From: Accumulibacter sp.
GTDB taxonomy: Bacteria; Pseudomonadota; Gammaproteobacteria; Burkholderiales; Rhodocyclaceae
Direction: 5' to 3'
NCBI RefSeq assembly: GCF_029255145.1
Contig: NZ_JAPUVQ010000050.1
Span: 15,681-79,680 of the forward strand
Length of the DNA: 64,000 nucleotides
Shown: positions 47,461-64,000 of the stretch, one piece after another
How the letters are laid out: every line of letters starts with the position of its first letter
Position numbering within the stretch: position 1 is the first letter of the stretch
Translations under genes and position numbers: made by a program
The notes under the pieces: generated by a model
The model's input: the letters and a program-made list of their open reading frames with translations, nothing else
What the model was told of the DNA's origin: nothing
The model's database searches: none

Positions 47461-47706
47461 ATGGTCCGTTCGCACCTCGTCGAACTGATGCGCCGCCAGC
47501 AGCTGAAAACGACCGAGCTGGCACGGCTGGCGCACGTCAATCGCAGCACGGTGGCCGCATTGACGCGCGATCGCGCGACCCGCGTCGATCTCACCGCGCT
47601 GGAGAGAATCTGCACGGTCCTCGGCTGCGGGCTCGGTGATCTGCTGGAAATCGTCCCGGACGCGCCTCGGCAAAACGACAACCCGCCGACTGCCGGAGCG
47701 AGCTGA
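47461..47706 (+). CDS. XRE/Cro-C1-type helix-turn-helix regulator (81 aa)
   Basis: ATG 47461 (MVRSHLVELMRRQQLKTTELARLAHVNRSTVAALTR..ICTVLGCGLGDLLE). Its stop codon directly abuts the pglW ATG. Confidence 0.75.
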   Translation: MVRSHLVELMRRQQLKTTELARLAHVNRSTVAALTRDRATRVDLTALERICTVLGCGLGDLLEIVPDAPRQNDNPPTAGAS

Positions 47707-50700
47707 ATGCCCATGAGTCTCAGCCGCTGGCAGGCCGTCTCACAGTCGCAGTTCGCCTGGGAGCGCGAGGCGCTGGACTGGCTGCGCAACCAGCTTCCCG
47801 ATCGCGAGCCCTGGCACGCCTGGACCAACTTCGAATTCATCGACGACGAGGGCAAGGTCAACGAGGTTGACGCGCTGATCCTGACGCCGGCGGGTCTCTT
47901 CCTGATCGAGATCAAGAGCCGGCCCGGCGTCGTCACCGGCGACACCCACACCTGGCTGTGGGTCACCGATGGTCGCGAACGCGCCTACGACAACCCGCTG
48001 ATCCTCGCCAACCGCAAGTCGAAGCGGCTGGCCAGCCTGCTGCGGCGGCAGCCGTCGGTATTCAGGGCGAAAGTGCGCTTGCCCTTCGTCGAGCCGCTGA
48101 TCTTCCTGTCGGCCACCAGCCTTGACTGCCGGCTCAGTGGCACGGCCCGGGCAGGCACTTACCTGCGCGGTCAGCCGAACAGCGAGTCCGATACCGGCAT
48201 CATCGGCGCGCTGCAGAACGGAACCGCCAGTGCCCGCGCGATCCAGCTCGGCCGCGTCGACCATCAACACGCCCGGGTGCTCGCCCGGGCCATCGCCGAG
48301 GCCGGCGTCAGGCCCTCGAACAAGCATCGCAAGGTGGCCGATTACCAGCTCGGCGCGCTGTTGGCGGAAGGCGGCTCGTACCAGGACTGGGAGGGCACGC
48401 ACACCGCGATGGCGGCTGTACGCCGGCGTATTCGCATCTACACCGTCGCCGCCGCCACCACGCCCGATGCGCGCAGGTCGCTGGTTCGCCAGGCGCAGCG
48501 AGAGTTCCAGATCCTCGAAGGCATCGACCACCCGGGCATCGTCAAGGTCAAGGACTACCAGGACACCGAACTCGGCCCGGCGCTCATCTTCGATCACGAC
48601 CCCAAGGCCATCCGGCTCGACTTCCTGCTGCGCGAAATGGGCCACCAGCGGGGCCAACCGCGGGACCAACAGCGGAGCCAACAGCTCAACGTTGACCAGA
48701 GCCTGCAGATCGTCCGTGACCTGGCAGAGACCCTGAAGTACGCCCATCAGAAGCGCCTGTACCACCGCGCCCTGTGCCCGCAGAGCATTCTGGTTCAGGA
48801 TGTCGCCGGCGCAACGCCACGGCCGCGCATCATGAACTGGCAGACCGGCGCACGCGAGGGCACGCAAGGCACCGACACCGCCGATCCCGCGCGCCGCACG
48901 GTCGGCGGCACGATGCACGTCGAGGAGTACGTCGAGGACCCCGGCCTGGTCTATCTGGCGCCCGAAACCTCGCAGTCCGACGCGCAGCACGGCCCAAGCC
49001 TGGATGTCTTCAGCCTGGGTGCGATCACCTATCACGTCTTCTCCGGACAGCCACCGGCAAGCTCGGTGCTCGATCTCGCCGAAAAGTTGCGCATCGGGCA
49101 GGGCCTGCGGCTGTCGGACGTGCTCGACGGCTGTGGCAGGCAGCTGCAGGACCTCATCCAGCACAGCACCTGTCCCGACGTGATGGGCCGCTATGGCACC
49201 ATCGACGAGTTCCTGCAGGACCTCGACAAGGTCGTCGATGAACTGACGACCCCGGAGCCCGAGGCCACCGTCGATCCGGCCGAAGCCAACCCCGACGAGC
49301 GCATCGAAGGGGGCTTCACGGTCATTCGCAAGATGGGCCGAGGCTCGTCGGCGGACGTGCTGCTGGTCCGCGAGGACGGCAGGAGCGACGAGATGATCCT
49401 CAAGGTCGCCCTCGACGCCAGCCTCAACGACCGCCTCACCGCCGAGGGCGAAGCACTCTCCAAACTACGCCATCCGAATATCGTCGAGTGGCAGCGCACG
49501 CTCACCGTCAATGGCCGGACCGCGCTGCTGATGCACAAGGCCGGCGAAAAGACCCTGGCCGACCGCATCCGCGACGGAGCCCGCCTGTCGCTCGACCTCC
49601 TGCAGCGCTTCGGCGAAGAGCTGATCCAGGCGGTCGACTACCTCGATCAGCAGGGCGTCGCCCACCGCGACATCAAGCCCGAAAACATTGGCATGTCGCA
49701 GGCCGGTACCCGGGGCAAGCTGCAACTGGTGCTGTTCGATTTCTCGCTCACCCGCACTCCGGCCGAGAACATCGCCGCCGGCACGCATCCCTATCTCGAC
49801 CCTTTCCTCTCTCTGCGCAAACCGGCGCGCTGGGATCTCCAGGCCGAGCGCTTTGCGCTCGCCGTCACCCTGCACGAAATGGTCACCGGCGTCGCGCCGC
49901 GCTGGGGCGATGGCAAGACGCAAGCGTCGATGCTCGATTGCGAAGCCACCCTCGCCAGCGAGCGCTTCGACCCCTTGCTGCGTGACGGTTTCACCGCCTT
50001 CTTCGCCAGAGCGCTGAACCGCAACCCGCGCAAGCGCTTCGACAATGCCGAAGAGATGCTGCGCGACTGGCGCCGGATCTTCGAGGCCGGCGCGTCGGCA
50101 AGCCAGTCGTCGCCAGACCCCTTCGAAGCCGTCGCCCGCCTGGCCACCGCCAGCACCAACATGGCCGAGCTGGGCTACAGCGTCGAAGCGCAGAACGTGC
50201 TCGAAGCGATGGCCATCCACAACGCGCTCGAGCTGCTGGCCGTCGATCGCGTGCGCTTTCGCTACCTGCGCGGCGTCGGCGACCGCATCCGCAAGGAAAT
50301 CCGCCTCAAGGCCAAAGCCCTGGCTGCCATCCGGCCGGACCTCGTGCAAGGCCGCCCGACGCTGCACGAGGTCGACGACGACGCGGCAGCGGCCGGCGCG
50401 ATCAGCGTCAACGAACTGGCCGCGCAGCTCCTGCCGCGCCGGCCGGCCGGTGACGACCGTGTCGAAGAGACCGCACTGGCGATCTACCTTGGCCTGGAAG
50501 AGGCCGAAGGCTCGACGCTCTGGACACCGCTGGGCGTCGCCGCCAGCGCACTTGCGATCGACCGCAACGACCTTTCCGCCGCCTTGCTGAAAGCCCGCGA
50601 GCGCTGGCTGAAAACGCCGCAGCTCACCGAACTGCGTAACCACTTCGAAAGCCTGCTCTCCACCCAGGGCGGGGTGATGACCGTCCCCGAGCTGGCGTTG

Positions 50701-51966
50701 GCGCTGCTCGCCATGCGCGGCTGCGCGTCGCAGGACGACGCCGAGCGCCTGCGCCTGGCGACCGCCGTGGTTCGTGCCTGTTGCGAAGCCGAAGCCCATC
50801 TGGAGCGTCTGCGCTTTCAGGAATTCGAACACCGCCCCCTGCCGCTGATCGCCGTTTCCGCCGAATTGGCCGAATACGCCCGCCGGCTCGGCGCGTCGGC
50901 GGACGCCTGCGCGCAGGCCGAACCCTTGCTGACGCCGCAGCGAGCGCTCGAAACACTGGAGTCGGTGCCCGCGCCGGAGGTCAGTCCGGCGCTCTCGGCG
51001 CAGCGCCTGTTGCGCCTGGCCACCGCCGCAGCGCAGCGCGCGGCGCTGTCCAGCCGCCAGGAGATCTATCCACGCGGCATGGCCGCTGCTCTGGCCCTGC
51101 GCCAGTCGCTCGGCGCGCTGATGGGGGTGCGCTTCCTGAAGCCGAAGGATGTGCAGGATCGCGTCGCCGGCCGCTACCCCGAAGCACAGCCGCTGCCGCG
51201 ACGCCCACTCCTCGACACCCTGCTGGCCGACGTCGGCGCGCTGCTGGTCTGGAGCGACGACACCCCGGCCGGCCCGGGCTACCTGCCCTCGACGCAAGCG
51301 CTCGGCCCGTCGGCGGGCACTACCACGCAATACTCCCGCGCCACCACGGCCATGGAGCGCGGCCTGCCGGGAGCGGATGCCGGCAGCGACGAGGCCTCCG
51401 CCGCCGCCATCGAGGCGCAGAAGCTGGAAGACCGCCTGGCGTACGCGCGCACGGCCGGCGGATTTCTCGTGCTCACCGTCGAGCCGCGGCTGGCGCACCA
51501 TGTCGAAGCCGAGTTGCTGCGCCGTTTCGGCCACCGGCGGGTGAGCTTCGAGGCGCTGATGCTCAAGGCGCTGCGCCAGCAGGCCGAAGCGTTGAAGGTC
51601 AACTGGAACGTCGTTCTGATGGCTGATGCCGCCGCTCCCACCAGCACCGACTGGAGCCGCCTGATGCGCCTGGTGCACAAGGCGCTGCCGCTGGTGAAGC
51701 AGGCGCTCCTCGAAGCCACCGCCCCGGTGCTGCTGGTCAACTCGGGTCTGATCGCCCGCTACGGCCTGATGCCGCTCATCGACGAGCTGCGTGACGAGAT
51801 CGGCCGGCCGGGCAGGCCCGCCAGCCTGTGGATGCTGCTGCCGATGGCGGCCACCGGACTGCCGACCATCGACGACGTCCCCGTGCCGATCATCACCTCA
51901 ACCCAGTGGGCGAATGTTCCCGTCGCCTGGGCCAGGAACCTGCACCGCGCAGCCTCCGCGGCCTGA
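47707..51966 (+). CDS. pglW: BREX type 2 serine/threonine kinase PglW (NERD + degenerate kinase + kinase + large C-terminal region)
   Basis: 1419 aa. N-terminal NERD-like region (..EVDALILTPAGLFLIEIKS..). A first kinase-like domain has HRA/NWQ in place of HRD/DFG. A second has ILKVA, HRDIKPEN and DFS. Confidence 0.85.
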   Translation: MPMSLSRWQAVSQSQFAWEREALDWLRNQLPDREPWHAWTNFEFIDDEGKVNEVDALILTPAGLFLIEIKSRPGVVTGDTHTWLWVTDGRERAYDNPLILANRKSKRLASLLRRQPSVFRAKVRLPFVEPLIFLSATSLDCRLSGTARAGTYLRGQPNSESDTGIIGALQNGTASARAIQLGRVDHQHARVLARAIAEAGVRPSNKHRKVADYQLGALLAEGGSYQDWEGTHTAMAAVRRRIRIYTVAAATTPDARRSLVRQAQREFQILEGIDHPGIVKVKDYQDTELGPALIFDHDPKAIRLDFLLREMGHQRGQPRDQQRSQQLNVDQSLQIVRDLAETLKYAHQKRLYHRALCPQSILVQDVAGATPRPRIMNWQTGAREGTQGTDTADPARRTVGGTMHVEEYVEDPGLVYLAPETSQSDAQHGPSLDVFSLGAITYHVFSGQPPASSVLDLAEKLRIGQGLRLSDVLDGCGRQLQDLIQHSTCPDVMGRYGTIDEFLQDLDKVVDELTTPEPEATVDPAEANPDERIEGGFTVIRKMGRGSSADVLLVREDGRSDEMILKVALDASLNDRLTAEGEALSKLRHPNIVEWQRTLTVNGRTALLMHKAGEKTLADRIRDGARLSLDLLQRFGEELIQAVDYLDQQGVAHRDIKPENIGMSQAGTRGKLQLVLFDFSLTRTPAENIAAGTHPYLDPFLSLRKPARWDLQAERFALAVTLHEMVTGVAPRWGDGKTQASMLDCEATLASERFDPLLRDGFTAFFARALNRNPRKRFDNAEEMLRDWRRIFEAGASASQSSPDPFEAVARLATASTNMAELGYSVEAQNVLEAMAIHNALELLAVDRVRFRYLRGVGDRIRKEIRLKAKALAAIRPDLVQGRPTLHEVDDDAAAAGAISVNELAAQLLPRRPAGDDRVEETALAIYLGLEEAEGSTLWTPLGVAASALAIDRNDLSAALLKARERWLKTPQLTELRNHFESLLSTQGGVMTVPELALALLAMRGCASQDDAERLRLATAVVRACCEAEAHLERLRFQEFEHRPLPLIAVSAELAEYARRLGASADACAQAEPLLTPQRALETLESVPAPEVSPALSAQRLLRLATAAAQRAALSSRQEIYPRGMAAALALRQSLGALMGVRFLKPKDVQDRVAGRYPEAQPLPRRPLLDTLLADVGALLVWSDDTPAGPGYLPSTQALGPSAGTTTQYSRATTAMERGLPGADAGSDEASAAAIEAQKLEDRLAYARTAGGFLVLTVEPRLAHHVEAELLRRFGHRRVSFEALMLKALRQQAEALKVNWNVVLMADAAAPTSTDWSRLMRLVHKALPLVKQALLEATAPVLLVNSGLIARYGLMPLIDELRDEIGRPGRPASLWMLLPMAATGLPTIDDVPVPIITSTQWANVPVAWARNLHRAASAA

Positions 51967-51999
51967 ACACAGAACTTGCGAACGAATTGAAGCCTGCAC

Positions 52000-54447
52000 A
52001 TGATCGATGCCAAAGTCCTGCTCGCTGATCTGACCCGCCTGCTCAAGCGGCTGGAAGACGACCTGCGCGAACGCGTGCTCAGCCCGTCCAGCGAGGTACC
52101 GGAGCTGCGCACCCGGCTTCAGGCAGAGTGGCAGGCGGCGCGCGATGCCGGGCAAACGGCCGAGACCTTCGAATCCTGGGCCGAGCAGGTCATCACCCAG
52201 GCCGGCGTGCACTGGCTGTTGAGCGGCGTCTTCCTGCGCTTCATCGAAGACAACGGGCTGGTGGAACGGCCGTGGATCAGCGGCACGCCGCAATCAGGCC
52301 GGCTGGCCCTGGCACGCGACCGGCATGACGCGTACTTCCGTGAACATCCGCACCAGAACGATCGCGACTACCTGATGGGCTGCTTCCAGGAGGCCGGTGC
52401 CTTGCCGGGCCTGCACACCTTCTTCGACGGCGCCCACAACCCGGTCTTTCGCCTCGGCATCAGCGGCGATGCGGCGATGGCGGTGATGCAGTTCTGGCAG
52501 GAGGTCGCCGCCGATTCCGGGGCGCTGATTCGCGACTTCACCGACCCGACCTGGAACACGCGCTTCCTCGGCGATCTGTACCAGGACCTGAGCGAAGCCA
52601 CGCGCAAGCGCTATGCGCTGCTGCAGACGCCCGAGTTCGTCGAGGAGTTCATCCTCGACCGGACGCTGACCCCGGCGATCAACGAGTTTGGCTATCGCGA
52701 AGTGCGGACGATCGATCCCACCTGCGGATCGGGGCACTTCCTGCTCGGCGGCTTCCATCGCCTGATCGACGAGTGGTCGAGCAACGAGCCGGGGCGCAAC
52801 CGGCGCGACATCGCTCAGAAAGCGCTGGACGCGGTCGCTGGCGTTGACCTGAATCCGTTCGCGGTCGCCATCGCGCGTTTCCGCCTGTTGTTGGCGGCAT
52901 TGCGGGCCAGCGACGTGCGCCGAATGGCCGAGGCGCCGGATTTCAGGATTCATGTCGCCATTGGCGACAGCCTGCTGCACGGCAAGCGCTTTGGACTGAC
53001 TGCCACCGACGACATGTTCCAGGAAGCCGACCATTTTGCCGATACAGGCTTGGCGCATGCCTACGCCAGCGAAGACCTGGCTGAGGTGCAGGCGATTCTG
53101 GGTCGGCAGTACCACGCCGTGGTGGGCAACCCGCCCTATATCGTTGTCAAGGACGCTGCGCTCAATGCGGCCTATCGCAAGTACTACGCCAGTTGCCATC
53201 GGCAGTATTCGCTCGGCGCGCCGTTCACCGAGCGCTTCTTCGATCTGGCTGTCACTGGGCGCGATGCGCAGCCTGCCGGTTTCGTCGGGCTGATCACCGC
53301 CAACTCGTTCATGAAGCGCGAGTTCGGCAGCAAGCTGATCGAGCAGGTGCTGCCGCGACTGGATCTCACGCATGTGGTTGATACGTCTGGCGCCTACATA
53401 CCGGGCTACGGCACGCCCACTGTCATCCTTTTTGGCCGCCATCGGCCACCCATCGGCGATGGCGTGCGCACGGTGATGGGCATCAAGGGCGAGCCCAGCA
53501 CGCCGGAAACTCCGGCACATGGGATGGTGTGGTCGGCGATCGTGGGGCAGATCGACCGCACGGGTTCCGAGAGCGAGTTCGTTAGCGTGGCTGACACGGC
53601 GCGGGCGACGTTTGCAAAGCACCCGTGGAGCATCGGTGGCGGTGGGGCCGCTGAACTGCGCGAGCAACTCGAAGAGCCAGCAGGTGGAAGGCTTCGGGAC
53701 CTTGGCGCCGATCTCGGATTCGGAGTGGTCACGCGAGAAGACGACGCTTACCTGCTCGGCGAAGCAGCGCTGCTGCGCTTAGGAATCGACCCGACCCACA
53801 CGAAACCCGCCGTCGATGGCGAGTGCGTTCGCGATTGGTCTATTGACTCTCCGACTGTTGCGCTCTGGCCCTATGGCGCGCCTGGGCTCGATGCCACTGC
53901 CTCTTATGCAACCCAAAGCGCTCTCTGGGCCTACAAGACTGGGCTCTCGGGTCGCGTGGCATATGGGAAATCGCAGCTCGAGCGCGGCCTTGAGTGGTTC
54001 GAGTATTCGATGTTCTTCAAGAGCCGGTTTACTACACCGCTCACAATCACCTTCGCCGAAATCGCTACCCACAACCACTTCGTCCTCGATCGCGGCGGCA
54101 AGGTCTTCAAGCAGACGGCACCGGTGATCAAACTGCCCGCCGGGGCCGGCGAGGACGAGCACCTGGGCCTGCTCGGACTGCTCAACTCGTCGGTGGCGTG
54201 TTTCTGGCTGCAGCAGGTTTGTCACAACAAGGGCGGACCCGGTGGTGGATGCAGCAAGGATGAGAAGTGGCATGATTTCTACGCATTCAATTCAACCAAG
54301 GTCGCAGAGTTCCCACTAACCGACAAGCGCCCGCTGGACATCGCCCAAACGCTCGACCGACTCGCCCACGAACTGGCAGCCATCAGCCCGGCGGCCTTGC
54401 TCGATACCTCGCGCGTAGCCGAAGGAGACCACGATGCAAGTCCATAA
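52000..54447 (+). CDS. pglX: BREX type 2 adenine DNA methyltransferase PglX, N-terminal part (815 aa)
   Basis: Catalytic motif VVGNPPYIVVKD and SAM-binding region IDPTCGSGHFL. It ends ..LDRLAHELAAISPAALLDTS.. Confidence 0.85.
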   Translation: MIDAKVLLADLTRLLKRLEDDLRERVLSPSSEVPELRTRLQAEWQAARDAGQTAETFESWAEQVITQAGVHWLLSGVFLRFIEDNGLVERPWISGTPQSGRLALARDRHDAYFREHPHQNDRDYLMGCFQEAGALPGLHTFFDGAHNPVFRLGISGDAAMAVMQFWQEVAADSGALIRDFTDPTWNTRFLGDLYQDLSEATRKRYALLQTPEFVEEFILDRTLTPAINEFGYREVRTIDPTCGSGHFLLGGFHRLIDEWSSNEPGRNRRDIAQKALDAVAGVDLNPFAVAIARFRLLLAALRASDVRRMAEAPDFRIHVAIGDSLLHGKRFGLTATDDMFQEADHFADTGLAHAYASEDLAEVQAILGRQYHAVVGNPPYIVVKDAALNAAYRKYYASCHRQYSLGAPFTERFFDLAVTGRDAQPAGFVGLITANSFMKREFGSKLIEQVLPRLDLTHVVDTSGAYIPGYGTPTVILFGRHRPPIGDGVRTVMGIKGEPSTPETPAHGMVWSAIVGQIDRTGSESEFVSVADTARATFAKHPWSIGGGGAAELREQLEEPAGGRLRDLGADLGFGVVTREDDAYLLGEAALLRLGIDPTHTKPAVDGECVRDWSIDSPTVALWPYGAPGLDATASYATQSALWAYKTGLSGRVAYGKSQLERGLEWFEYSMFFKSRFTTPLTITFAEIATHNHFVLDRGGKVFKQTAPVIKLPAGAGEDEHLGLLGLLNSSVACFWLQQVCHNKGGPGGGCSKDEKWHDFYAFNSTKVAEFPLTDKRPLDIAQTLDRLAHELAAISPAALLDTSRVAEGDHDASP

Positions 54448-54781
54448 AACCACTGCCCGCATTCAAGCCTCTGGCGAACTCACCATCACACACCTGCCTT
54501 TTGCGCCGGGGACTCTGGTCGAAGTCTTGGTCGTGCGCAGCGAACGCAGCGCTGCCGAGCGCGAGCAGGAATGGGCGCGCTTGATGCAAGCGGTGCACGC
54601 GCTGCCGCACGCGCAGACGATCAGGGAAGAAGACATCGCCGTTGAAATCCACCGTCAGACGGCAATTCGTCAGGCGCTGACCGCTGTCGCGCAAGCGGGA
54701 ACTTTCGCCGCCGTCGATGATGCGTGTGCCTGGCAGCGCGAGTTGCGCGTCGACCGGGCGCAGCCGGGGCGCGAGGACTGA
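54434..54781 (+). CDS. 115-aa protein encoded inside the pglX split (AbrB/antitoxin-like N-terminus?)
   Basis: GAAGGAGA lies 5 nt before ATG 54434. It overlaps the PglX-N end by 14 nt and stops 4 nt before the PglX-C ATG. The N-terminus is ..ARIQASGELTITHLPFAPGTLVEVLVV... The first ~35 codons have more A/T-ending codons than their neighbours. Confidence 0.55.
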   Translation: MQVHKTTARIQASGELTITHLPFAPGTLVEVLVVRSERSAAEREQEWARLMQAVHALPHAQTIREEDIAVEIHRQTAIRQALTAVAQAGTFAAVDDACAWQRELRVDRAQPGRED

Positions 54782-54785
54782 AACC

Positions 54786-55982
54786 ATGACCCTCCCCACC
54801 CGCCAAAGCCTTGACGCTGCCCGCACCCAGTCCGCCCGCCTTCGCCGCCAGATGATCGCTGCCCAGGAAGAACTCGACTGGCGCTGCTACCGCCTCTACG
54901 GTCTGCTGCCCGCCGGCAGCAAGGAATCCGATTTTGAGCACTCTGCGCCACCCGAAGTGGCGCTCGGCGAGCGTCCCTTCGAGATCGTGATGGCTCGCCG
55001 TATCCTTGAAGGCGCTCTACAGACCAAGTGGTTTGAGTGGCTGGGCATAAAGCCCAAGACGGACATCCCTCCGCACTGGCCAGCGGACTATCAGGCATTG
55101 GTTCAGCGTCGGATTTCGCTGATCGAGACAGACCGCAGCATCGGTCTGATCGAAGCGCCCAGTTGCAAGCGCCGCTGGGAATCTACCCCGTGGGAGTCTC
55201 TTGAGCAGGCGGCGCTGCGCGACTGGCTGCTGGCCCGGATCGAGTCGCCGCGCTACTGGACGAGCAGCGCCGGGCAGCCGCCGCAGATGACCAGCACCAG
55301 CCGCCTCGCCGACGCGCTGCAGCGCGACTCCGACTTCATGCAGATTGCCGGGTTGTACGCGGGTCACGCCGACTTCCACACCGCCCAACTCGTTGCCGAA
55401 CTGGTGGCGTCGGAAGCGGTTCCCTTCCTGCCGGTGCTGCGCTACGCCGACACCGGCCTGCGCAAACGTGCCCAGTGGGAAGACACCTGGGCTTTGCAGC
55501 GGCGCGAGGATGTCGGCGAAGCAGTCGGCAAGATCCCGGTGCCGCCCAAGTACCAGAGCAAGGACTTCCTGAAGACCGATTACTGGCGCCTGCGCGGCGG
55601 CCTGGACGTGCCCAAGGAGCGCTGGATCAGCTACCCCGGCTGCGAACGCGGCGCCGACGGCAGCCTGGTCATCGCCTGGGCCGGCTGGGACCATCTGCAG
55701 CAGGCCACGGCCCTGGCCACCTACTTCATCGACATGAAGGAACGCGAAGGCTGGAGCCGCGAACGGCTACAACCCTTGCTCGCCGGCCTGCTCGAACTGC
55801 TGCCCTGGCTGAAGCAATGGCACAACGACATGAACCCCGATTTCGGCGCACGCATGGGCGACTACTACGAGAGTTTCGTGACCGACGAAGTGCGAGCACT
55901 GCAATTCACGCTCGATGACCTGCGTGCCTGGAAACCGGCGGTTACGGCGGCCAGGCGCGGGCGCAAGAGATCTGCAGCATGA
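54786..55982 (+). CDS. pglX: PglX C-terminal part (398 aa)
   Basis: ATG 54786 lies 8 nt after GAGGA. The string ..RRQMIAAQEELDWRCYRLYGLLP.. matches, as I recall it, the C-terminal region of BREX methyltransferases. Confidence 0.75.
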   Translation: MTLPTRQSLDAARTQSARLRRQMIAAQEELDWRCYRLYGLLPAGSKESDFEHSAPPEVALGERPFEIVMARRILEGALQTKWFEWLGIKPKTDIPPHWPADYQALVQRRISLIETDRSIGLIEAPSCKRRWESTPWESLEQAALRDWLLARIESPRYWTSSAGQPPQMTSTSRLADALQRDSDFMQIAGLYAGHADFHTAQLVAELVASEAVPFLPVLRYADTGLRKRAQWEDTWALQRREDVGEAVGKIPVPPKYQSKDFLKTDYWRLRGGLDVPKERWISYPGCERGADGSLVIAWAGWDHLQQATALATYFIDMKEREGWSRERLQPLLAGLLELLPWLKQWHNDMNPDFGARMGDYYESFVTDEVRALQFTLDDLRAWKPAVTAARRGRKRSAA

Positions 55983-56185
55983 CGCAATCGCCAGCAACGG
56001 TCCCGATGACCTACACGCACCTCTGCGCATGGTGCGTCATCGCTGGCATTGGCATGCCACGTGGCCTGGATACGGTGACTCTGGCGTCGGGTGAAGCCTG
56101 GTCGTATTCCCTGATCAGAGACATTGACAAGGCATTCGCAGTCAGCGACCGCGGCGCGGCGTCTGCGCCGGCCAGCGCAACGTAA
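55979..56185 (+). CDS. 68-aa hypothetical protein
   Basis: ATGA-coupled to the PglX-C stop. Third-position GC is moderately high. No family was recognised. Confidence 0.4.
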   Translation: MTQSPATVPMTYTHLCAWCVIAGIGMPRGLDTVTLASGEAWSYSLIRDIDKAFAVSDRGAASAPASAT

Positions 56186-56196
56186 GGAGGGCCGAC

Positions 56197-57318
56197 ATGT
56201 TCGACCGCAACAGGCCCTTCAACGACCTGCCCCCCCTGCCGCCGGCGGCAGAGGTGGAGACCGCCGCCGTTCTCAAGAAGGCGATCACGGCCAGCCGTGC
56301 CCTGGCCGAGTTGAAGGGCATGGCCGAGCGCATGCCGAACCAGGCGATGTTGATCGACAGCCTGGTGCTGCAGGAAGCGCGCGCGTCGTCGGAGATCGAG
56401 AACATCCTGACGACGAACGACGAGCTGTTCAAGGCGGCGTCGGACGAAGCCCTGCCGGCCAGCGCCGAAGCCAGGGAGGTGCTGCGCTACCGGCAGGCGC
56501 TGAACTACGGCTTCCGGCAGATCAGGGAACGGCCGCTGGCCACGGGCCTGTTCATCGAAATCGCGCAGCTCATCAAGCAGACCGACGTCAGCGTGCGTCG
56601 TACGCCCGGCACACGCATCACCAACGGCCGGGGTGAGACGATCTACACGCCGCCCGAAGGCGAAGCGGTCATCCGCGACAAGCTGCGTCACCTTGAGAAC
56701 TTCATGCACGCCGAGGATGGGCCGGGAAGCGGGCCGGGAGGCGGGCCGGGAAGGGGGCCGGGAAGCGGGCTGGACGTGCTGGTGAAGATGGCGCTGGTGC
56801 ACTACCAGTTCGAGGCCATCCACCCCTTCCCCGATGGCAACGGGCGCAGCGGGCGAATCGTGAACATCCTGTACCTGGTGGACCGGGGGCTGCTCAACCT
56901 GCCGGTGCTCTACCTGTCGCGCCACATCATCGACCACAAGCCGGCCTACTACGAAGGCCTGCGGCGGGTCACCGAGGAAGGCGCCTGGGGCGACTGGGTG
57001 CTATACATGCTGGACGCGGTGGAGCAGACCTCGCTGCGCACGCGCCAGCAGATCACCGACATCATGGCGCTGATGGAAGCGGTGCGCGAACGCGTGCAAC
57101 GCGAGGCGCCCGGCGTCTACAGCAAGGACCTGATCGAGCAGATCTTCCGGCAGCCCTACTGCAAGATCCAGTTCCTCGAACGTGCCGGCATTGGCACGCG
57201 GCAGACCTGTGCCAAGTACCTGCGCGAACTGGAGCGCCTGGGCGTGCTGCACGGCGAGAAGATCGGCCGTGAGGTGTATTTCATCAACCAGGCGCTGTTC
57301 GCGCTGCTGACGCGATGA
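56197..57318 (+). CDS. fic: Fic family protein (AMPylase-type, auto-inhibited class-II-like, C-terminal winged helix)
   Basis: AAGGAGG RBS. Fic motif HPFPDGNGRSGR, N-terminal inhibitory-type motif SSEIEN = (S/T)xxxE(G/N), and a C-terminal ..TRQTCAKYLRELERLGVL.. HTH-like segment. Confidence 0.9.
   Translation: MFDRNRPFNDLPPLPPAAEVETAAVLKKAITASRALAELKGMAERMPNQAMLIDSLVLQEARASSEIENILTTNDELFKAASDEALPASAEAREVLRYRQALNYGFRQIRERPLATGLFIEIAQLIKQTDVSVRRTPGTRITNGRGETIYTPPEGEAVIRDKLRHLENFMHAEDGPGSGPGGGPGRGPGSGLDVLVKMALVHYQFEAIHPFPDGNGRSGRIVNILYLVDRGLLNLPVLYLSRHIIDHKPAYYEGLRRVTEEGAWGDWVLYMLDAVEQTSLRTRQQITDIMALMEAVRERVQREAPGVYSKDLIEQIFRQPYCKIQFLERAGIGTRQTCAKYLRELERLGVLHGEKIGREVYFINQALFALLTR
56719..56766 (+). 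repeat. in-frame 12-bp tandem repeat x4 inside fic
   Basis: GGGCCGGGAAGC / GGGCCGGGAGGC / GGGCCGGGAAGG / GGGCCGGGAAGC encodes GPGS-GPGG-GPGR-GPGS (aa 175-190). Confidence 0.9.
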
Positions 57319-57345
57319 GCAAATCGGCCGACCGCACGACACGAT

Positions 57346-57375
57346 CTGTTAAAAACATGATCGTATTTTTAACAG
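57346..57375. repeat. AT-rich perfect 10-bp inverted repeat between fic and pglY (operator- or hairpin-like)
   Basis: CTGTTAAAAA (57346-55), a 10-nt spacer, then TTTTTAACAG (57366-75). It is followed by GTTGTC..GACAAC and two ACATGT palindromes (57385-90, 57402-07). Confidence 0.85.
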
Positions 57376-57445
57376 GTTGTCGCCACATGTTCGTTTGGAC
57401 AACATGTCGGCCCCAAGGGGCGGGCCGCCGGAAAGGAAGCATTCG

Positions 57446-60400
57446 ATGCCGCTGCTGAAAGACCTGATCGCCATCCCGGAGCGCGTGCACCAGGGCGACT
57501 TCGTCCTCAATCTGGCCGACGGCGTGGCGCATGCCGAGGCGACGCTGAGCGACTACGTGGTGACGCCGCAGCTCAACGCCTCCTTCAACGATGCGCTGAA
57601 CTTCATCAAGCAGTCGGTCCAGGGCGGCACCAGCAAGGCCGCGTACCTGCACGGCAGTTTCGGCTCGGGCAAGAGCCACTTCATGGCGGTGCTCAACCTG
57701 CTGCTCGACAACAACGTGTCGGCGCGCTCGATGCCCGAGCTGGCCGACGTCGTCGCTCAGCACAACGGCTGGACGCAGGAGCGCAGGTTCCTGCTCGTCC
57801 CATATCACATGATCGGTGCGCGCAGCATGGAGTCGGCGATCCTCGGCGGCTACGCCGAGTTCGTGCGCAAGCGCCATCCGGAGGCGCCGATCCCGGGCTT
57901 CTACCTGTCGGAGCGCCTTTTTGAAGACGCGGTGCGCATGCGCGATCGCCTCGGCGACGAGGCTTTCTTCCGGGATCTGAACGCGGGGTCCGATGCCGAC
58001 GACAACGGCGGCGGCGCTGACAGCGGCTGGGGTGAGCTGAGCGGCGGCTGGGATGCGACGAGCTTCGAAGCCGCGATGCTCGAGCCGCCGAGCGGGGACG
58101 ACCGCGTGCGCCTGGTCGGCGACCTGATCAGCCGCTACTTCACGGCCATCGCCGATGTCGCCGAGAGCCGCGGCGAGGCCTTCGTGCCGCTCGACGACGG
58201 CCTGAGCATCATCAGCCGCCACGCTCACGCGCTCGGCTACGACGCGGTGATCCTGTTCCTCGACGAGCTGATCCTGTGGCTGGCCAGCCGGGCGGCCGAT
58301 GTCAGCTTCGTCAGCAGCGAGGGCACCAAGCTCGTCAAGCTGGTCGAGGCCGGCAACGCTGACCGGCCGATTCCGCTGGTCAGCTTCGTCGCCCGGCAAC
58401 GCGACCTGCGCGAACTGGTCGGCGAAAACCTCGCCGGCTCGCTGCAATTGCAGTTCAGCGACGTGCTGCGCCACTGGGAAGCGCGCTTCCACCGCATCAC
58501 GCTCGAAGACCGCAACCTGCCGGCGATCGCCGAGAAGCGCGTGCTCCGGCCGTTGTCCGAAGCGGCCCGGCAGACTCTTGGCAACGCCTTCGATGAATTC
58601 CAGAAGGTCAGGCCCGAGGTCTGGAACACGCTGCTGACCGAGACCGCGGACAAGGAGATGTTCCGCAAGGTCTATCCGTTCAGCCCGGCACTGGTGCAGA
58701 CCCTGATTGCCGTATCGGCGGCCTTGCAGCGCGAGCGCACGGCCTTGAAGCTGATGCTGCAACTGCTGGTCGATCGGCGCGACGACCTGGAACTGGGCCA
58801 GATCATCCCGGTCGGCGACCTCTTCGACGTGATCGCCGATGGCGACGAACCGTTTTCGGAAGCGATGCGCATCCACTTCGACAACGCCAAGCGGCTGTAT
58901 CGGCGGAAGCTGCTGCCGCATCTGGAACGCCAGCACGGCGTGACCTGGGAAAACATCCGCATCGGCGACGCCGACCCGGCCAGGGCGCGAGCGCTGCGCA
59001 ACGATGCGCGGCTGATCAAGACGCTGCTGCTGAGCGCGCTGGTGCCGGAAGTCGATTCCTTGAAGGCCCTGACGGCGCAACGCCTGGCCGCGCTGAACCA
59101 CGGCACGATCCGCTCGCCGATCCCCGGCCGCGAAACCCAGGACGTGCTGCGCAAGTGCAAGGAGTGGGCGGCCGACATCGGCGAGATCAAGGTCACCGAC
59201 GATACCAACTCGCTGATCTCGATCCAGGTCACCGGCGTCGACATCGAGCCCATCGTGCGCGGGCCGGCTGCCTCCAGCGACAACCCGGGCAACCGCCGGC
59301 GGCGCGTGAAAGAGATGCTGTTCGAGCAACTCGGCGTGACCGACACCAACGACCTCTTCGCCACCTACACGGTGCTGTGGCGCGGGACCCGGCGCGAGGT
59401 CGAGGTGCTGTTCGAGAACGTCCGCGAGATGTCGGACGAGAAGCTGCGCGGGCGCGCGGGCACCTGGAGCGTGGTCATCGACTTCCCGTTCGACGACCCG
59501 CAGTTCACCCCGGCCGACGATCTGGTCCGTTTGGCCGACTATCGCGGCGACGATACGCAGACCCTGGTGTGGCTGCCGTCGTTCTTCAGCGCCAGGGCGC
59601 AGCATGATCTGGGCCGGCTGGTGGTGCTGGACTACATCCTCACCGGGGAGCGCTTCAACGAGCTGGCCGCCCACCTGGCGCTGGTCGATCGCGGGCCGGC
59701 GCAGGCGCTGCTGCGCAACCAGCGCGACCAGTTGCAGCAGCGGGTTCGGCAATACCTGGAGGTGGCCTACGGCATCGCCGGCGACTCGCGCGACGCGGTG
59801 GTGAACCCGATGGCGCCCGAAGACCAGTTCCGCTCGCTGGACCGGACGCTGACGCCGCTGCCGCCGGTCGGGGCGAACCTGAAATCGGCGTTCGAGGCGC
59901 TGCTCGACCAGCTCTTCAGGCACCAATACCCGGCGCATCCGGTCTTCGATGCCGAGGTGAGGCCAGCGGTGGTGAAAAAAGTGTGGCCGGAACTGGAGCG
60001 GGCGATCGGCAGCGCCGACGGACGCGCGCCGGTCGGCGATCGCGTGCTGCGGCAACTGATCCGCTCGATCGCCGACCCGGTGCATTTGGGCAAGACGGGC
60101 GAGAGCCATTTTGTGCTGCTTGACCATTGGCGCTCGCACTTTCTCCGCGAGCAGGCCAAAGCGGGCGCCGCGATCACCGTCGCCGATCTGCGCAAGTGGA
60201 TCGACCAGCCGCTGGCGATGGGGCTGCCGGCCGAGGTGCAGAACCTGATCATCCTGGCCTTCGCCGGGCATACGAATCGCCGTTTCGTGCGCGGCCATGT
60301 CCCCTACCTGGCGAGCATCGACCAGATGCCGGACGAACTGGAGCTGCGCGAGCAGATCCTGCCCGAACCCGGCGACTGGGAGGCCGCCTGCAAGCGTGCC

Positions 60401-61129
60401 GCCGCGCTGTTCGGTCTGACGATCCCGACATCGCGCCATGCGGGTAACGTCGCCAGGCTGGTCGAGGAAGTTCAGGCCAGGGCGCGTGAGGCCCGCGAGC
60501 CGATCAGCAGCCTGGTCAGGACGCTGAACGAGAAGTCGGCCTTGTTCCCGGCGGCGAGCGACAACCGTCGCCTGCAGACGGCACGTTCGGCGCTGGCCTT
60601 GCTCGCCGGGCTGCTGAGTGCCGAAAGCGCGGCGGTGGTCACGACCCTTGCCGGGGCAACGATAGAAACCTCCGAGGTCGCCATGCGCCAGACCCTGGCC
60701 AGGGCACGTGAACTGGATGAAGCGGTTCGCACCGCAGCGTGGGACATCTTCGAGGCGATGAAGGCGCTGAACGACGAGCGGCAAACCGCCGCGCGGGCGA
60801 TCGTCGCCAGGGTGTGCGAGACACTGGCCGCCGACGAGCATGCGATCGGCTTGAAGGCGGCGCTCGACGACCAGCGCGGCAGGGCCGTGCGCTTGCTGAC
60901 CGTGGCACCGCCGCCAGCGCCTCCCGGTCCGGTGTCGCCGCCGCTGCCGCCGGAAAAACCTGCGCCGGCACCCAGGCCACGGGTAATCGTGCAGGAATCC
61001 GCCGCGGCTGACCTTGACCGCACGCAGGCGCTGGCGCTGCTCGACGATCTGCACGCCAAACTCGACAAGGACACGGACCTGCGGCTGTCGATCTCGTGGC
61101 GGCTCGAAAGGCCGGGGAGCAGCAAGTGA
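57446..61129 (+). CDS. pglY: BREX type 2 P-loop ATPase PglY
   Basis: ATG 57446 follows GGAAAGGAAG. Walker A GSFGSGKSHF. 1227 aa. Positioned directly upstream of pglZ. Confidence 0.85.
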   Translation: MPLLKDLIAIPERVHQGDFVLNLADGVAHAEATLSDYVVTPQLNASFNDALNFIKQSVQGGTSKAAYLHGSFGSGKSHFMAVLNLLLDNNVSARSMPELADVVAQHNGWTQERRFLLVPYHMIGARSMESAILGGYAEFVRKRHPEAPIPGFYLSERLFEDAVRMRDRLGDEAFFRDLNAGSDADDNGGGADSGWGELSGGWDATSFEAAMLEPPSGDDRVRLVGDLISRYFTAIADVAESRGEAFVPLDDGLSIISRHAHALGYDAVILFLDELILWLASRAADVSFVSSEGTKLVKLVEAGNADRPIPLVSFVARQRDLRELVGENLAGSLQLQFSDVLRHWEARFHRITLEDRNLPAIAEKRVLRPLSEAARQTLGNAFDEFQKVRPEVWNTLLTETADKEMFRKVYPFSPALVQTLIAVSAALQRERTALKLMLQLLVDRRDDLELGQIIPVGDLFDVIADGDEPFSEAMRIHFDNAKRLYRRKLLPHLERQHGVTWENIRIGDADPARARALRNDARLIKTLLLSALVPEVDSLKALTAQRLAALNHGTIRSPIPGRETQDVLRKCKEWAADIGEIKVTDDTNSLISIQVTGVDIEPIVRGPAASSDNPGNRRRRVKEMLFEQLGVTDTNDLFATYTVLWRGTRREVEVLFENVREMSDEKLRGRAGTWSVVIDFPFDDPQFTPADDLVRLADYRGDDTQTLVWLPSFFSARAQHDLGRLVVLDYILTGERFNELAAHLALVDRGPAQALLRNQRDQLQQRVRQYLEVAYGIAGDSRDAVVNPMAPEDQFRSLDRTLTPLPPVGANLKSAFEALLDQLFRHQYPAHPVFDAEVRPAVVKKVWPELERAIGSADGRAPVGDRVLRQLIRSIADPVHLGKTGESHFVLLDHWRSHFLREQAKAGAAITVADLRKWIDQPLAMGLPAEVQNLIILAFAGHTNRRFVRGHVPYLASIDQMPDELELREQILPEPGDWEAACKRAAALFGLTIPTSRHAGNVARLVEEVQARAREAREPISSLVRTLNEKSALFPAASDNRRLQTARSALALLAGLLSAESAAVVTTLAGATIETSEVAMRQTLARARELDEAVRTAAWDIFEAMKALNDERQTAARAIVARVCETLAADEHAIGLKAALDDQRGRAVRLLTVAPPPAPPGPVSPPLPPEKPAPAPRPRVIVQESAAADLDRTQALALLDDLHAKLDKDTDLRLSISWRLERPGSSK

Positions 61130-63873
61130 CCGGTGCCACCGGGCCTTTGTCCTTGCCGCAGCTCGAGGCACAGGCGCTCGCCGTGCTGGAGCGCGCGAGC
61201 GACGCCAAGGTCATCGCCATTCAGACCAGGACGCAGGCGGCGTGGCCGGATGCCATCAAGCTGTCGGGCCGGCCGTTCCGGCTGCGCTGGTGCGACAGCC
61301 CGTTGATGGTCCGCGAGGCGCTGTCCGCGCTGGAAGAGGGCGCTGAGGAGCAGGCCTGCCCCGGCCTGATCCTGTTGACGCCGCTGTCCGCACGCGATTT
61401 GGGCGGCGACGTGGTGGCCCGACTGGCCCGCGCTCAGGTTTTTCAGCCCGACGCCTGGGGAATGGTGCAGCAGCTCTTCAAGGCGCGCGAGATCGACGCG
61501 CGACTCGGCCGTTTCCGGTGGATGGCGCAACTGCTTGTCGAGCGGTCCGGCGTCGGTGCGTATCCGCCCGTGCCCAACGGCTTCCTCGATATGGACACGG
61601 CGTGGCGTCACGTCCTTGGCCGGTGCCTGAGTCTGGATGCCTCGACGCCGGATGCGGCAATGCTGTTGAACTGGTCTCTGGGTTCCGACGCGGCCGGGTA
61701 TTTCAACGATCTGCCCGATCAGGCCAAACCGCAGGTCACCGCCTGGCTCGGCGATTCAGCCGGAGCGGTAGGCGCGCTGGTCATGTGTTGCGTAATGGCC
61801 GGCAACACGCGGGATGCCGTCCCGCTCGGACTGGTGTGCGGCGTGGTGCTGTCGGCACAGGGCGAAGGCGTGCATGAGCTTGCCGCCGCCGCGATACGTC
61901 TCGAACGCTTCATCGGCGGCAAGCGCATCGGCACCGCCGAGGGACGTCTTTGGGGCAATGACGCCGCGAAGTGTCTGAAGGCCTTGACGCCGGCCTTGCG
62001 TCACGAGGTGATCGAACGCGCCGAGTTGCTGCTGCGCGAGCTTCATGTTGATACCTGCGCGCGTCTGAGCGATGTGCTTCCGCTCGGCCTGGAGCAGCGG
62101 CTTGCACTACTCGCGGATGCGCTCAAGACCTTCATGGCCGGGCCAGCGACGGCACAACTTCAGGCCATCGAAGGCGCGGCCGATTCGGTAACGTGCCATG
62201 CCCATGCCGATCCGGCAAGCACACGGATGCTGCGGGTGAAGATGGCCGTTCGCCTGTGTCGATGGCTGATCGCCGAGCGGCCAGACAGCAAGGATTCGAG
62301 CGAAGGTCGGGCAAGCGGGTTCGCTGACCTCGCGCAACGGTATGCCCGCGAAGGCGCTTTCGTCGATTGGGCACGTTTCAAACTGCTCGGCGGCGACGAC
62401 CTGCCGGGCCTTTCTTCAGCCTTCGTTGCCTTGCGCGAAGCGGCACGCACAAAGGCCGAGGCATTCAATCAACGCTTTGCGCAAGCCCTGCAGGTCTGGA
62501 ACCGTGAGCCCCGGGCAGAACCCGCATGCATGCCGGTGGAAGCGATTGTCGAACGCTTGCTTGCCCCACTGGCAAAGCAAACCCCGGTGCTGTTGCTGGT
62601 GGCGGACGGACTGAGTTACCCCATCTTTCGGGAGCTTTTCGAGGGCCTGGAGGCCCTGGGATGGGACGAGCAGGTCACGGCTTCGCCGACGACACTGGCG
62701 GTCGGTATCGCCGCGCTACCGACGATTACCGAAGTGAGCCGCAGCAGCCTGTTGTCGGGCCGCCTGGTGGTCGGCGCAGCAGCGCAGGAGAAGAGCGCGT
62801 TCGCAACGCATCCTGCCCTGGTCGGCGCGTCGCGCGCCGGGAGCAGGCCGGTGGTGTTCCACAAGGGCGATCTCGCAGACGCCGAAGGTTTGTCGTCGAC
62901 GGTTCGCGATGCGATCGCCTCGCCGCAGCAGCAGGTGGTGGCGGTCGTCTACAACGCCGTCGACGACCACCTGAGCGGCTCGAACCAGATCCGGGTGCGC
63001 TGGACGATCGATGATCTGCGGCTGCTTGGGCCCTTGTTGAGCGAAGCACGTCGAGCGCGGCGGGTGGTCGTGGTCACCGCCGACCATGGACATGTGATCG
63101 ACGATGGCACGGTGCAGCGTGGCCAGGGGGAAGGCGACCGCTGGCGGTTGCCATCGGGTACGCCAGACGCAGGCGAGCTGCTCTTCGAGGGTGGTCGCGT
63201 GAAGACGCCATCCGGCAACGCGGTACTCTGCATCTGGTCGGAAGGCGTCCGCCACGGAGCCAGGAAGAACGGCTATCACGGCGGGGCATCGGCACAGGAA
63301 GTCGTCGTGCCGCTGAGCGTGTTTACGCCACGCAACATGGTGCTGAAGGGCTGGCAGGTGGCGGCTGCGCCACAACCGGATTGGTGGGCGCCGCTGGAGG
63401 CCGCATTGCCAGCAGGAGGCCCTGAAACGCCGGTGCTCCCGAAGAAGCCGCCGAGAGCGAAACCGCTGGCTTCGCCCACACCACAGATCGATCTGTTCGG
63501 TGGGACGCTACCCGTCGCGGCACCCGCGCCCGCAGTGAACTGGATCGACGCCCTTCAGGCGTCGCCCGCCTACACGGCGCAGAAGGCGCTGGCAGCGCGG
63601 GTGGCGCCGGCCGATGCCGAGGTGCGCTCCCTGTTGGAGGCACTGGCGGCTCGTGGCGGGAAGCTTTCCAAAGCCGCCCTCGCGCAGCGCCTTGGCATGC
63701 CCGCAATGCGCATCAGCGGCTTTGTCAATGCCGTCAAGCGCGTGCTCAACCTTGATCAAGCCGCGGTACTGGTGCTCGACGAGACGGCGGGTACGGTGGA
63801 GCTGAACCGGGAATTGCTGGGGCGTCAGTTTCTGGTGCCCGACGCAGCAAGAGTGGCGAGAGCCGCAACCTAA
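61126..63873 (+). CDS. pglZ: BREX alkaline-phosphatase-superfamily protein PglZ
   Basis: GTG 61126 (GTGA overlap with pglY). PglZ-type motifs LLLVADGLSYPIF and VVVVTADHGH. 915 aa. Confidence 0.88.
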   Translation: MTGATGPLSLPQLEAQALAVLERASDAKVIAIQTRTQAAWPDAIKLSGRPFRLRWCDSPLMVREALSALEEGAEEQACPGLILLTPLSARDLGGDVVARLARAQVFQPDAWGMVQQLFKAREIDARLGRFRWMAQLLVERSGVGAYPPVPNGFLDMDTAWRHVLGRCLSLDASTPDAAMLLNWSLGSDAAGYFNDLPDQAKPQVTAWLGDSAGAVGALVMCCVMAGNTRDAVPLGLVCGVVLSAQGEGVHELAAAAIRLERFIGGKRIGTAEGRLWGNDAAKCLKALTPALRHEVIERAELLLRELHVDTCARLSDVLPLGLEQRLALLADALKTFMAGPATAQLQAIEGAADSVTCHAHADPASTRMLRVKMAVRLCRWLIAERPDSKDSSEGRASGFADLAQRYAREGAFVDWARFKLLGGDDLPGLSSAFVALREAARTKAEAFNQRFAQALQVWNREPRAEPACMPVEAIVERLLAPLAKQTPVLLLVADGLSYPIFRELFEGLEALGWDEQVTASPTTLAVGIAALPTITEVSRSSLLSGRLVVGAAAQEKSAFATHPALVGASRAGSRPVVFHKGDLADAEGLSSTVRDAIASPQQQVVAVVYNAVDDHLSGSNQIRVRWTIDDLRLLGPLLSEARRARRVVVVTADHGHVIDDGTVQRGQGEGDRWRLPSGTPDAGELLFEGGRVKTPSGNAVLCIWSEGVRHGARKNGYHGGASAQEVVVPLSVFTPRNMVLKGWQVAAAPQPDWWAPLEAALPAGGPETPVLPKKPPRAKPLASPTPQIDLFGGTLPVAAPAPAVNWIDALQASPAYTAQKALAARVAPADAEVRSLLEALAARGGKLSKAALAQRLGMPAMRISGFVNAVKRVLNLDQAAVLVLDETAGTVELNRELLGRQFLVPDAARVARAAT

Positions 63874-63952
63874 AAAATCGCGCTAGAGAACACAAATGGA
63901 CATTCAGCCAGACACACAGAACCTTGATCCGGCGTTTGCGACGACGGTCTCC

Positions 63953-63990
63953 TTCAACGTCGTGATTGTTCCAGGAATCACGACGTTGAA
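63953..63990. repeat. perfect 15-bp inverted repeat with 8-nt loop downstream of pglZ
   Basis: TTCAACGTCGTGATT (63953-67) / AATCACGACGTTGAA (63976-90). It lies in a visibly lower-GC stretch that starts right after the pglZ stop. Confidence 0.85.
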
Positions 63991-64000
63991 TTTCAGCCTA

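Follow-up and report, generated by a model that had tools for sequence, protein, structure and literature searches.

The window analysed here, a stretch of 64,000 nucleotides from Accumulibacter sp. (contig NZ_JAPUVQ010000050.1), carries at its right end a type 2 bacteriophage exclusion (BREX) locus, the type also called phage growth limitation (Pgl). The source contig is 89,270 bp long and includes the genes of WP_300336606 to WP_300336620. The locus is a true member of type 2 BREX, and the proteins identical to its PglW, its PglZ and both pieces of its PglX are already named as BREX-2 proteins in RefSeq. The truly unusual feature is that pglX is split into two genes. Taken as a whole, the locus is probably a type 2 BREX system with a two-gene pglX specifying a functional methylase, an embedded SoFic gene, pglY, pglZ and an XRE regulator, which continues to brxD-brxHI. 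The novelty is modest, and consists of a two-gene PglX that would have arisen through toxin-antitoxin (TA) insertion and toxin loss, an XRE gene found throughout the clade beside an invariant motif, and three slots for cargo.

Nine open reading frames (ORFs) are tightly packed in the same direction on the forward strand from 47461 to 63873, and all of them are intact with start codons and Shine-Dalgarno sites. The pglW gene (47707..51966, 1419 aa) encodes a NERD nuclease domain, tandem kinase domains and a long C-terminal region; the Pfam matches are NERD and two Pkinase stretches. The protein scored 1559 bits against the NCBIfam model BREX_PglW (cut-off 990) and 1590 bits against the PADLOC PglW model, and contains the motifs HRDIKPEN at aa 653 and DFS at aa 678. 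The pglY gene (57446..61129, 1227 aa) encodes a BrxC-like P-loop ATPase, in which the Walker A sequence GSGKS lies within GSFGSGKSHF at aa 70; the PADLOC BrxC-PglY model matched over its full length (1577 bits, profile 2-1239/1240). The pglZ gene (61126..63873, 915 aa) starts with a GTG codon overlapping the pglY stop. Its product is an alkaline-phosphatase-fold protein of the BREX-2 clade, with the motifs ADGLSYPIF (aa 493) and TADHGH (aa 651). It scored 829 bits with NCBIfam BREX_PglZ_2 (cut-off 200, profile 5-889/890) and 901 bits with PADLOC PglZ. All these motifs had been reported in a preliminary description made from the sequence alone, and all were found in place. The ORFs listed there (XRE, kinase, methylase, 115-aa, 68-aa, Fic, P-loop and PglZ) likewise exist as a tightly packed array on the forward strand. 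A ninth gene, however, was left unlisted, namely the 398-aa ORF at 54786..55982 with the DUF7008 domain, which is the C-terminal third of PglX.

The junctions within the array are 0 nt between XRE and pglW, 33 nt between pglW and pglX-N, a 14-nt overlap between pglX-N and orf115, and 4 nt between orf115 and pglX-C. These are followed by a 4-nt overlap between pglX-C and orf68, 11 nt between orf68 and the Fic gene, 127 nt between the Fic gene and pglY, and a 4-nt overlap between pglY and pglZ.

A genome scan using PglY retrieved 25 related loci from Accumulibacter, Aromatoleum, Burkholderia, Ramlibacter, Ideonella, Aquariibacter and related metagenome-assembled genomes (MAGs). The earlier view of a proteobacterial host agrees with this sample: Accumulibacter sp. 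belongs to the Betaproteobacteria, and 25/25 related loci come from Betaproteobacteria-like MAGs or isolates. The gene order XRE-pglW-pglX-pglY-pglZ was found by tblastn mapping in all loci that reach that far, with synteny in L003-L020, L025 and L026. PglW, PglY and PglZ are 77-97% identical to those of the window (PglY 85-95% in the 25 loci); PglX is 57-86% identical in its N half and 60-88% in its C half. The proposed identity as type 2 BREX (Pgl) is borne out, since the PADLOC and NCBIfam models for PglW, PglX, PglY and PglZ match ORFs of the window, and the four genes are syntenic in 25 or more relatives.

The assignment of the methyltransferase needs a correction. An N6-adenine methyltransferase ORF with NPPY (aa 377) is present as described, whereas a complete pglX is not: the 815-aa ORF pglX-N (52000..54447) represents only the N-terminal two thirds. 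It matched NCBIfam BREX_2_MTaseX with 1148 bits (cut-off 400, profile 2-799 of 1185) and PADLOC PglX with 1141 bits (profile 1-796 of 1189). The pglX-C product matched the same models with 567 bits (profile 799-1183) and 557 bits (profile 791-1186), respectively, and Pfam DUF7008 with 527 bits, and its coverage of BREX_2_MTaseX is contiguous with that of PglX-N. The N half ends with SPAALLDTSRVAEGDHDASP before its stop codon, and the C half begins with MTLPTRQSLDAAR. The linker alignment showed that the cut sits at the variable inter-domain linker, with zero PglX residues lost.

In 12 loci, pglX consists of one ORF with about 1210-1270 codons, and outside the Accumulibacter group it is of this single-ORF form. 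The split was found in the window and in L012, L013, L026-29, L032-35 and L040-43, which represent at least five diverged sequence types from independent assemblies. A sequencing frameshift was also considered as the cause; it is ruled out by the 338-nt insert, which has an ORF of its own and recurs in many independent assemblies. Both halves of PglX are under purifying selection similar to that on other core genes. The ratio of nonsynonymous to synonymous substitution rates (dN/dS) among split loci is 0.23 for pglX-N and 0.15-0.21 for pglX-C, compared with 0.16 for pglW and 0.13 for pglY. When PglX-C was modelled alone with AlphaFold (AF2), the mean confidence (pLDDT) was 92 and the predicted template modelling score (pTM) was 0.86, which is consistent with an autonomous folding unit in the DUF7008 half. 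Comparison of this model with the PDB gave no fold match (best E 0.6, TM score about 0.15), and the PDB also gave no sequence match.

The PglX-N protein contains a hypervariable block at about aa 560-680 (about 53650-54030 in the window), which is 20-35% identical to most relatives and is presumably the target-recognition region, judging from this pattern of variation. The same block is 75-90% identical to that of Aromatoleum diolicum 22Lin (L010), and the two PglX proteins may share their specificity. No long homopolymer tract was found in pglX; the only run of at least 7 nt in the searched sequence lies outside the gene.

The ORF between the two halves, orf115 (54434..54781, 115 aa), is a chimeric antitoxin remnant. 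Its aa 1-72 match a 79-aa ORF found in other split loci, and its aa 73-115 match the C-terminal tail of a 93/94-aa antitoxin. This tail is the only part of the antitoxin that matches (68-79% identity to the C-termini in L030 and L032). A 124-aa PIN protein is encoded 3 nt after the antitoxin gene, and the pair is free-standing in L030/L031. In L032-35 it stands inside pglX, in the order pglX-N, 79-aa ORF, antitoxin, PIN and pglX-C. Two stretches present in L032 are missing from the window: one of 259 nt, whose loss fuses the 79-aa ORF to the tail of the antitoxin, and one of about 370 nt, which is the body of the PIN gene. The junction reads GAGGACTGAAACCATG followed by ACCCTC in the window and GAGGACTGAACCATG followed by TGG...GTG and then ACC in L032; the start of pglX-C is thus the ATG of the deleted PIN toxin, behind the Shine-Dalgarno sequence of the toxin. 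No PIN homologue was found in the 64-kb window, and the gene after orf115 is pglX-C.

Homologues of orf115 are limited to Accumulibacter-type sequences. The ORF is open in at least 11 clusters with in-frame indels only, and its GC contents at the three codon positions (0.73/0.48/0.72) are coding-like. The searches with orf115 and orf68 gave no Pfam, PADLOC or NCBIfam family, and those with orf115, the 79-aa ORF, the two antitoxins, orf68 and orf47 (a small ORF described below) gave no Pfam match at E up to 5. The synonymous divergence of orf115 is 0.13-0.19, as against 0.40-0.73 in the flanking pglX halves. In L012 (Ca. Accumulibacter phosphatis SBR_S), an unrelated PIN-like ORF, truncated to about 83 aa (7570-7835, with ...DRLIIATAL...), occupies the site of the split in pglX, and a complete pair of 93-aa antitoxin and 124-aa PIN lies between pglX-C and pglY. 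Therefore, TA cassettes have used the locus repeatedly.

The following history is proposed for the split. A PIN toxin-antitoxin cassette would have landed in the inter-domain linker of a single-ORF pglX, giving a full cassette state with a 79-aa ORF, a 94-aa antitoxin and a 124-aa PIN toxin between the halves. Deletion of the toxin body and of 259 nt upstream would then have produced the fused 115-aa ORF and left the toxin ATG and ribosome-binding site to drive PglX-C. The two polypeptides might assemble into a methylase and its specificity factor. The split PglX would mark the DNA of the host at an N6-adenine site that is not palindromic, and the replication of unmarked phage DNA would be blocked by the remaining BREX-2 proteins. 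Translation of orf115 may carry ribosomes from pglX-N to pglX-C. We infer that orf115 is retained mainly for this translational coupling; the ORF overlaps the end of pglX-N by 14 nt and terminates 4 nt short of the pglX-C ATG. The complete proposal is put forward tentatively, with the chances slightly against it: in this lineage PglX might be a two-subunit enzyme (methylase plus DUF7008 subunit) that arose from a TA insertion and was stabilised by toxin deletion, with the antitoxin remnant as a translational bridge or regulator.

The first gene of the module, XRE (47461..47706, 81 aa), encodes an XRE/Cro-type helix-turn-helix (HTH) protein, which is a putative transcriptional regulator (Pfam HTH_26, 64.5 bits). 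A WYL domain was not found in the 81-aa protein, for which Pfam gave HTH_26/HTH_3 only; it is therefore not BrxR. The XRE stop codon abuts the pglW ATG, and the XRE dN/dS is 0.30. Directly upstream of pglW, XRE genes 60-93% identical were found in L005, L008-L012, L014-L016, L018, L020, L025 and L026. XRE precedes pglW in every relative that reaches that far, including loci with brxD/brxHI.

The left border of the conserved BREX-2 module is marked by an invariant 21-nt motif, TGCTATCCTGCGCAACACCCC (47422..47442, forward strand), about 18 nt 5' of the XRE start (consensus TGCTAT(C/G)CTGCGCA(A/G)CACCCC). The motif occurs as a single copy in the window, where 0 are expected by chance, and as a single copy at the same place in 13 related loci; apart from it, the upstream regions of 11 aligned loci are unrelated. 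The homology of the window to L010, L012 and L026 starts at 47407-47422. The motif contains an extended -10-like TGnTATCCT (TGcTATcCT in the window) and a CTGCGCAG palindrome. These features make it a candidate promoter and/or operator of the XRE-pglW operon, and by analogy with C proteins and BrxR the XRE protein may autoregulate the operon from this motif. Beyond the border, the left flanks vary by genome. For example, lon is found in the window and ahpC/ahpF in L026. These different flanks indicate that the BREX-2 module moves. The left flank of the window is ordinary chromosome, with an OmpA/MotB-family gene at 41521-42090 and lon on the minus strand at 44215-46638; a further gene within 41521-46638 resembles, on appearance only, one for an acyltransferase-like membrane protein. 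The 64-kb window was found to be free of integrase genes, tRNAs and Rfam RNAs, and the promoter/terminator scan of the window gave nothing above chance.

The slot between pglX and pglY holds a SoFic-type Fic AMP-transferase gene in the window (56197..57318, 373 aa), as well as in L001, L002, L036 and L040. The protein scored 370 bits against PADLOC SoFic, and 95.8, 45.9 and 95.4 bits against Pfam Fic_N, Fic and SoFic-like_C, respectively. It aligns end to end with the SoFic structures 3ZCN/3EQX of the PDB (E about 1e-94) and carries the catalytic motif HPFPDGNGRSGR at aa 209 and the inhibitory-helix motif SSEIEN at aa 64; it is about 48-50% identical to plasmid homologues. As its NCBIfam score is under the equivalog cut-off, it counts as a homologue within the SoFic family and not as a certified equivalog. 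SoFic has been described as a defence system of a single gene, whose product is toxic (PMC12249575). The embedded gene may likewise act independently of BREX, as an AMPylating abortive-infection backup. In other relatives the same slot holds PDC-M28B/C, HEC-02A/B or an antitoxin-PIN pair. The cargo, including SoFic and the TA cassettes, differs between loci, and its genes are therefore not fixed partners of the system.

Some smaller features surround the SoFic gene. Upstream of it lies orf68 (55979..56185, 68 aa), which is either a doubtful small ORF or a leader of the SoFic cassette. It has atypical GC contents at the three codon positions (0.55/0.61/0.71) and 3 close clusters only, all from Accumulibacter; its region gave no RNA fold signal (z = -0.64), and its status as a gene is doubtful. 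The orf68 segment shows 99% nucleotide identity to L040, compared with 91% for pglX-C and 96% for SoFic. The low nucleotide divergence of the orf115 and orf68 segments could reflect either constraint or recent recombinational spread. Within the SoFic gene, four in-frame copies of a 12-nt unit (GGGCCGGGARGS) at 56719-56769 encode a GPGS-rich loop (aa 175-191). The number of repeats varies, and the loop of the L040 homologue (96% identical) is 8 codons shorter. On the 3' side, a 47-aa ORF (orf47, 57315-57458) overlaps the SoFic stop by ATGA and runs 13 nt into pglY; it is open in L001, L002 and L040. A 47-aa AS1 antitoxin was reported downstream of E. coli SoFic (PMC12249575), with which orf47 agrees in size and position, a likeness drawn from the description and not from the sequence. 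No small ORF was found after the SoFic homologues on the Rhizobium and Methylosinus plasmids. The AT-rich patch between SoFic and pglY contains a perfect inverted repeat whose 10-bp arms lie 10 nt apart (CTGTTAAAAA-N10-TTTTTAACAG, 57346-57375), which is largely conserved in L001, L002 and L040 and, from its form and position, could be an operator or the pglYZ promoter region.

At the right end, only 127 nt remain 3' of pglZ, and brxD and brxHI were not found in the window by tblastn. The statement that neither gene appears before the window ends thus holds, but not as a non-canonical trait of the locus, as brxD-brxHI lie downstream of pglZ in 17/18 relatives with downstream DNA (for L010, PADLOC BrxD 669 bits and BrxHI 915 bits). 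They lie either about 20 nt from pglZ or behind 1.8-2.9 kb of cargo. The homology of the window to all relatives ends about 11 codons before the pglZ stop, and a new small ORF begins at 63897. Only the start of this 43-aa ORF (63897..64000, forward strand) is present; it opens the variable pglZ-brxD cargo slot and is cut by the window end. A 35-nt pattern from it retrieved three metagenome loci (L037-L039), in which the ORF after pglZ has 94% amino acid identity to it. In L038 (3-936), where the core is intact, and in L039, the ORF is followed by a 2509-aa sacsin/TmtA-like gene, inside which the L038 sequence ends. In L039 (3109-13451), this gene is followed by an 880-aa DrmD-like SNF2 helicase gene and then by brxD-brxHI, 10.4 kb after pglZ. 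As L039 shares the tail ORF and reaches brxD-brxHI after cargo, the absence of these genes is best explained by the window end. Judged from these sequences, the locus almost certainly continues beyond the window with cargo and then brxD-brxHI.

Depending on the locus, the pglZ-brxD slot carries a UG20 reverse transcriptase, the sacsin-like/DrmD-like pair or a MazE/PrlF-PIN pair. A homologue of the sacsin/TmtA-like giant protein was also seen after brxHI in L016, and one of the DrmD-like helicase before XRE in L020. The two genes may form a recurrent companion system of BREX-2.

Accordingly, most of the "non-canonical gene content" of the preliminary description falls away, with XRE being a conserved gene of the clade and the lack of brxD/brxHI an effect of the window end. 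Its four extra genes also do not stand as such: the Fic gene is an embedded SoFic, the 115-aa ORF a TA remnant and the 68-aa ORF doubtful.

Several results weigh against the reading favoured here. The PglY protein scored 1073 bits against the NCBIfam BREX-2 PglY model, under its cut-off of 1700, and the SoFic homologue scored 449 bits, under the NCBIfam equivalog cut-off of 550. The generic promoter scan did not flag the 21-nt motif, and its promoter or operator role rests on sequence. Neither brxD nor brxHI is seen within the window. Constraint on orf115 is only weak (dN/dS 0.3-0.65 over 115 codons), and AF2 gave no usable model of its product (pLDDT 53). The C-terminal domain of a type 1 PglX could not be expressed alone (PMC11341690), a sign that a divided PglX may be difficult to fold, although that type 1 domain differs from DUF7008. 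Some relatives are also damaged. L037 and L039 are core deletion derivatives (pglW::pglZ), pglX-C is broken into fragments in L027, and frame breaks occur in pglY and brxD of L012 and in pglZ of L015. In the deletion derivatives (13477-14696 in L039), pglW runs to about aa 489 and is there fused to roughly the final 230 codons of pglZ, and the cargo and brxD-brxHI are kept downstream. With decay seen in several relatives, the BREX-2 loci of this lineage do erode.

These damaged relatives raise the alternative that the locus of the window is itself a decaying, non-functional BREX-2, in which a selfish TA cassette inactivated the methylase and the remaining ORFs have not yet degraded. The weak constraint on orf115 and the failed expression of the type 1 domain would fit such a course. 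The state of the window's own genes argues otherwise, as its nine ORFs are unbroken and have start codons and Shine-Dalgarno sites, and the two halves of pglX evolve with dN/dS values (0.15-0.23) like those of the unbroken core genes. Five or more diverged sequence types, from independent assemblies, have the split in common, and it was made exactly at the variable linker without residue loss, before a DUF7008 domain predicted to fold autonomously. Decay is thus considered unlikely for this locus.

About equally unlikely is a second alternative, which concerns orf115 and would make it more than a passive remnant. The ORF might be a functional orphan antitoxin or DNA-binding regulator, which represses the pglX-C/SoFic part or neutralises PIN toxins encoded elsewhere. 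Its preservation as an open frame with coding-like codon positions, the antitoxin tail kept at 68-79% identity, and a synonymous divergence unusually low compared with the flanks could be explained in this way. However, the 64-kb window has no PIN gene, and the protein has no family match and no confident fold. Moreover, its dN/dS reaches 0.65, and the same slot in L012 is filled by the unrelated truncated PIN, so that no particular protein is required there. A reduced four-gene pglWXYZ system without brxD/brxHI, which recruited XRE, small ORFs and Fic as partners instead, is highly improbable: the two genes are not inside the window and such losses do occur (BrxD is present in 88% and BrxHI in 91% of type 2 loci; PMC12839542), but the window offers only 127 nt after pglZ, 17/18 relatives carry both genes, the tail ORF shared with L038/L039 (94% aa) leads in L039 to brxD-brxHI after 10.4 kb of cargo, XRE also occurs in loci bearing brxD/brxHI, and the SoFic/TA cargo varies by locus.

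The BREX classification, including type 2 or Pgl (Streptomyces coelicolor pglWXYZ), reportedly goes back to Goldfarb et al. 2015. The locus of the window shares with type 2 BREX a PglW with NERD and pseudo-kinase/kinase domains, a type-2 PglX with NPPY, PglY and a PglZ of the type-2 clade; its relatives also share the linked brxD and brxHI pair downstream. The differences are a single co-directional core array led by a conserved XRE gene, a PglX made as two polypeptides, which the BREX_2_MTaseX family definition does not foresee, and other embedded defence genes. In S. coelicolor, a homopolymer tract drives the phase variation of pglX, whereas the pglX of the window is without a long tract. 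The host is also different, since this one is betaproteobacterial and the surveyed taxa are mostly actinomycetes: a survey of 2026 found type 2 BREX in 1309 taxa, of which 1039 are actinomycetes, with PglW in about 80%, BrxHI in 91% and BrxD in 88% (PMC12839542). A search of the text of this survey found no mention of XRE, Fic or a split PglX.

Embedded defence genes have been described in type 1 BREX islands, for example PARIS in Salmonella D23580 and BrxU in E. fergusonii pEFER (PMC11341690). Here too, unrelated defence genes lie between core genes without disrupting them; SoFic is the insert in the window, and PDC-M28, HEC-02, the UG20 reverse transcriptase and PIN TA pairs are the inserts in its relatives. 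The BREX type, the cargo and the three slots (in pglX, pglX-pglY and pglZ-brxD) are different, and one slot is inside a core gene. The embedded Fic protein resembles the SoFic of Shewanella oneidensis in its Fic_N, Fic and SoFic-like C domains, its intact HxFxDGNGRxxR and its N-terminal inhibitory SxxxEN helix, whereas its sub-equivalog score, variable GPGS-repeat loop and position inside a BREX-2 operon are different. The relationship of orf115 to VapBC-type modules is seen in its last 43 aa and its stop-spacer-ATG junction, which match the antitoxin-PIN pairs (L030, L031; L032-35). It differs from them in having no toxin, in a chimeric antitoxin bearing the N-terminus of another ORF, and in belonging to no Pfam antitoxin family. 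The C proteins of restriction-modification systems and the BrxR of type 1 are comparable to XRE in that a small co-directional HTH gene heads the defence operon beside a conserved short DNA motif; unlike BrxR, the protein here is of the XRE/HTH_26 type without a WYL domain, and its DNA binding and regulatory role are putative.

Among the common BREX types, type 2 is the one whose mechanism is least understood, and the work has mostly been done in actinomycetes or on type 1. The locus leaves the principles of BREX unchanged. A compact proteobacterial BREX-2, with an HTH regulator, a 21-nt candidate control motif, a split PglX and defined defence-gene slots, could serve experiments, and could address questions such as the roles of the PglX domains, the switching on of the locus and the backup of BREX by SoFic. 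The split also bears on genome annotation, as a pipeline that looks for a PglX of about 1200 aa may report such loci as incomplete. If PglX is indeed a two-subunit enzyme in this lineage, a natural domain dissection of type 2 PglX would already exist, and the locus would show a route from a selfish TA insertion to a multi-subunit defence enzyme.

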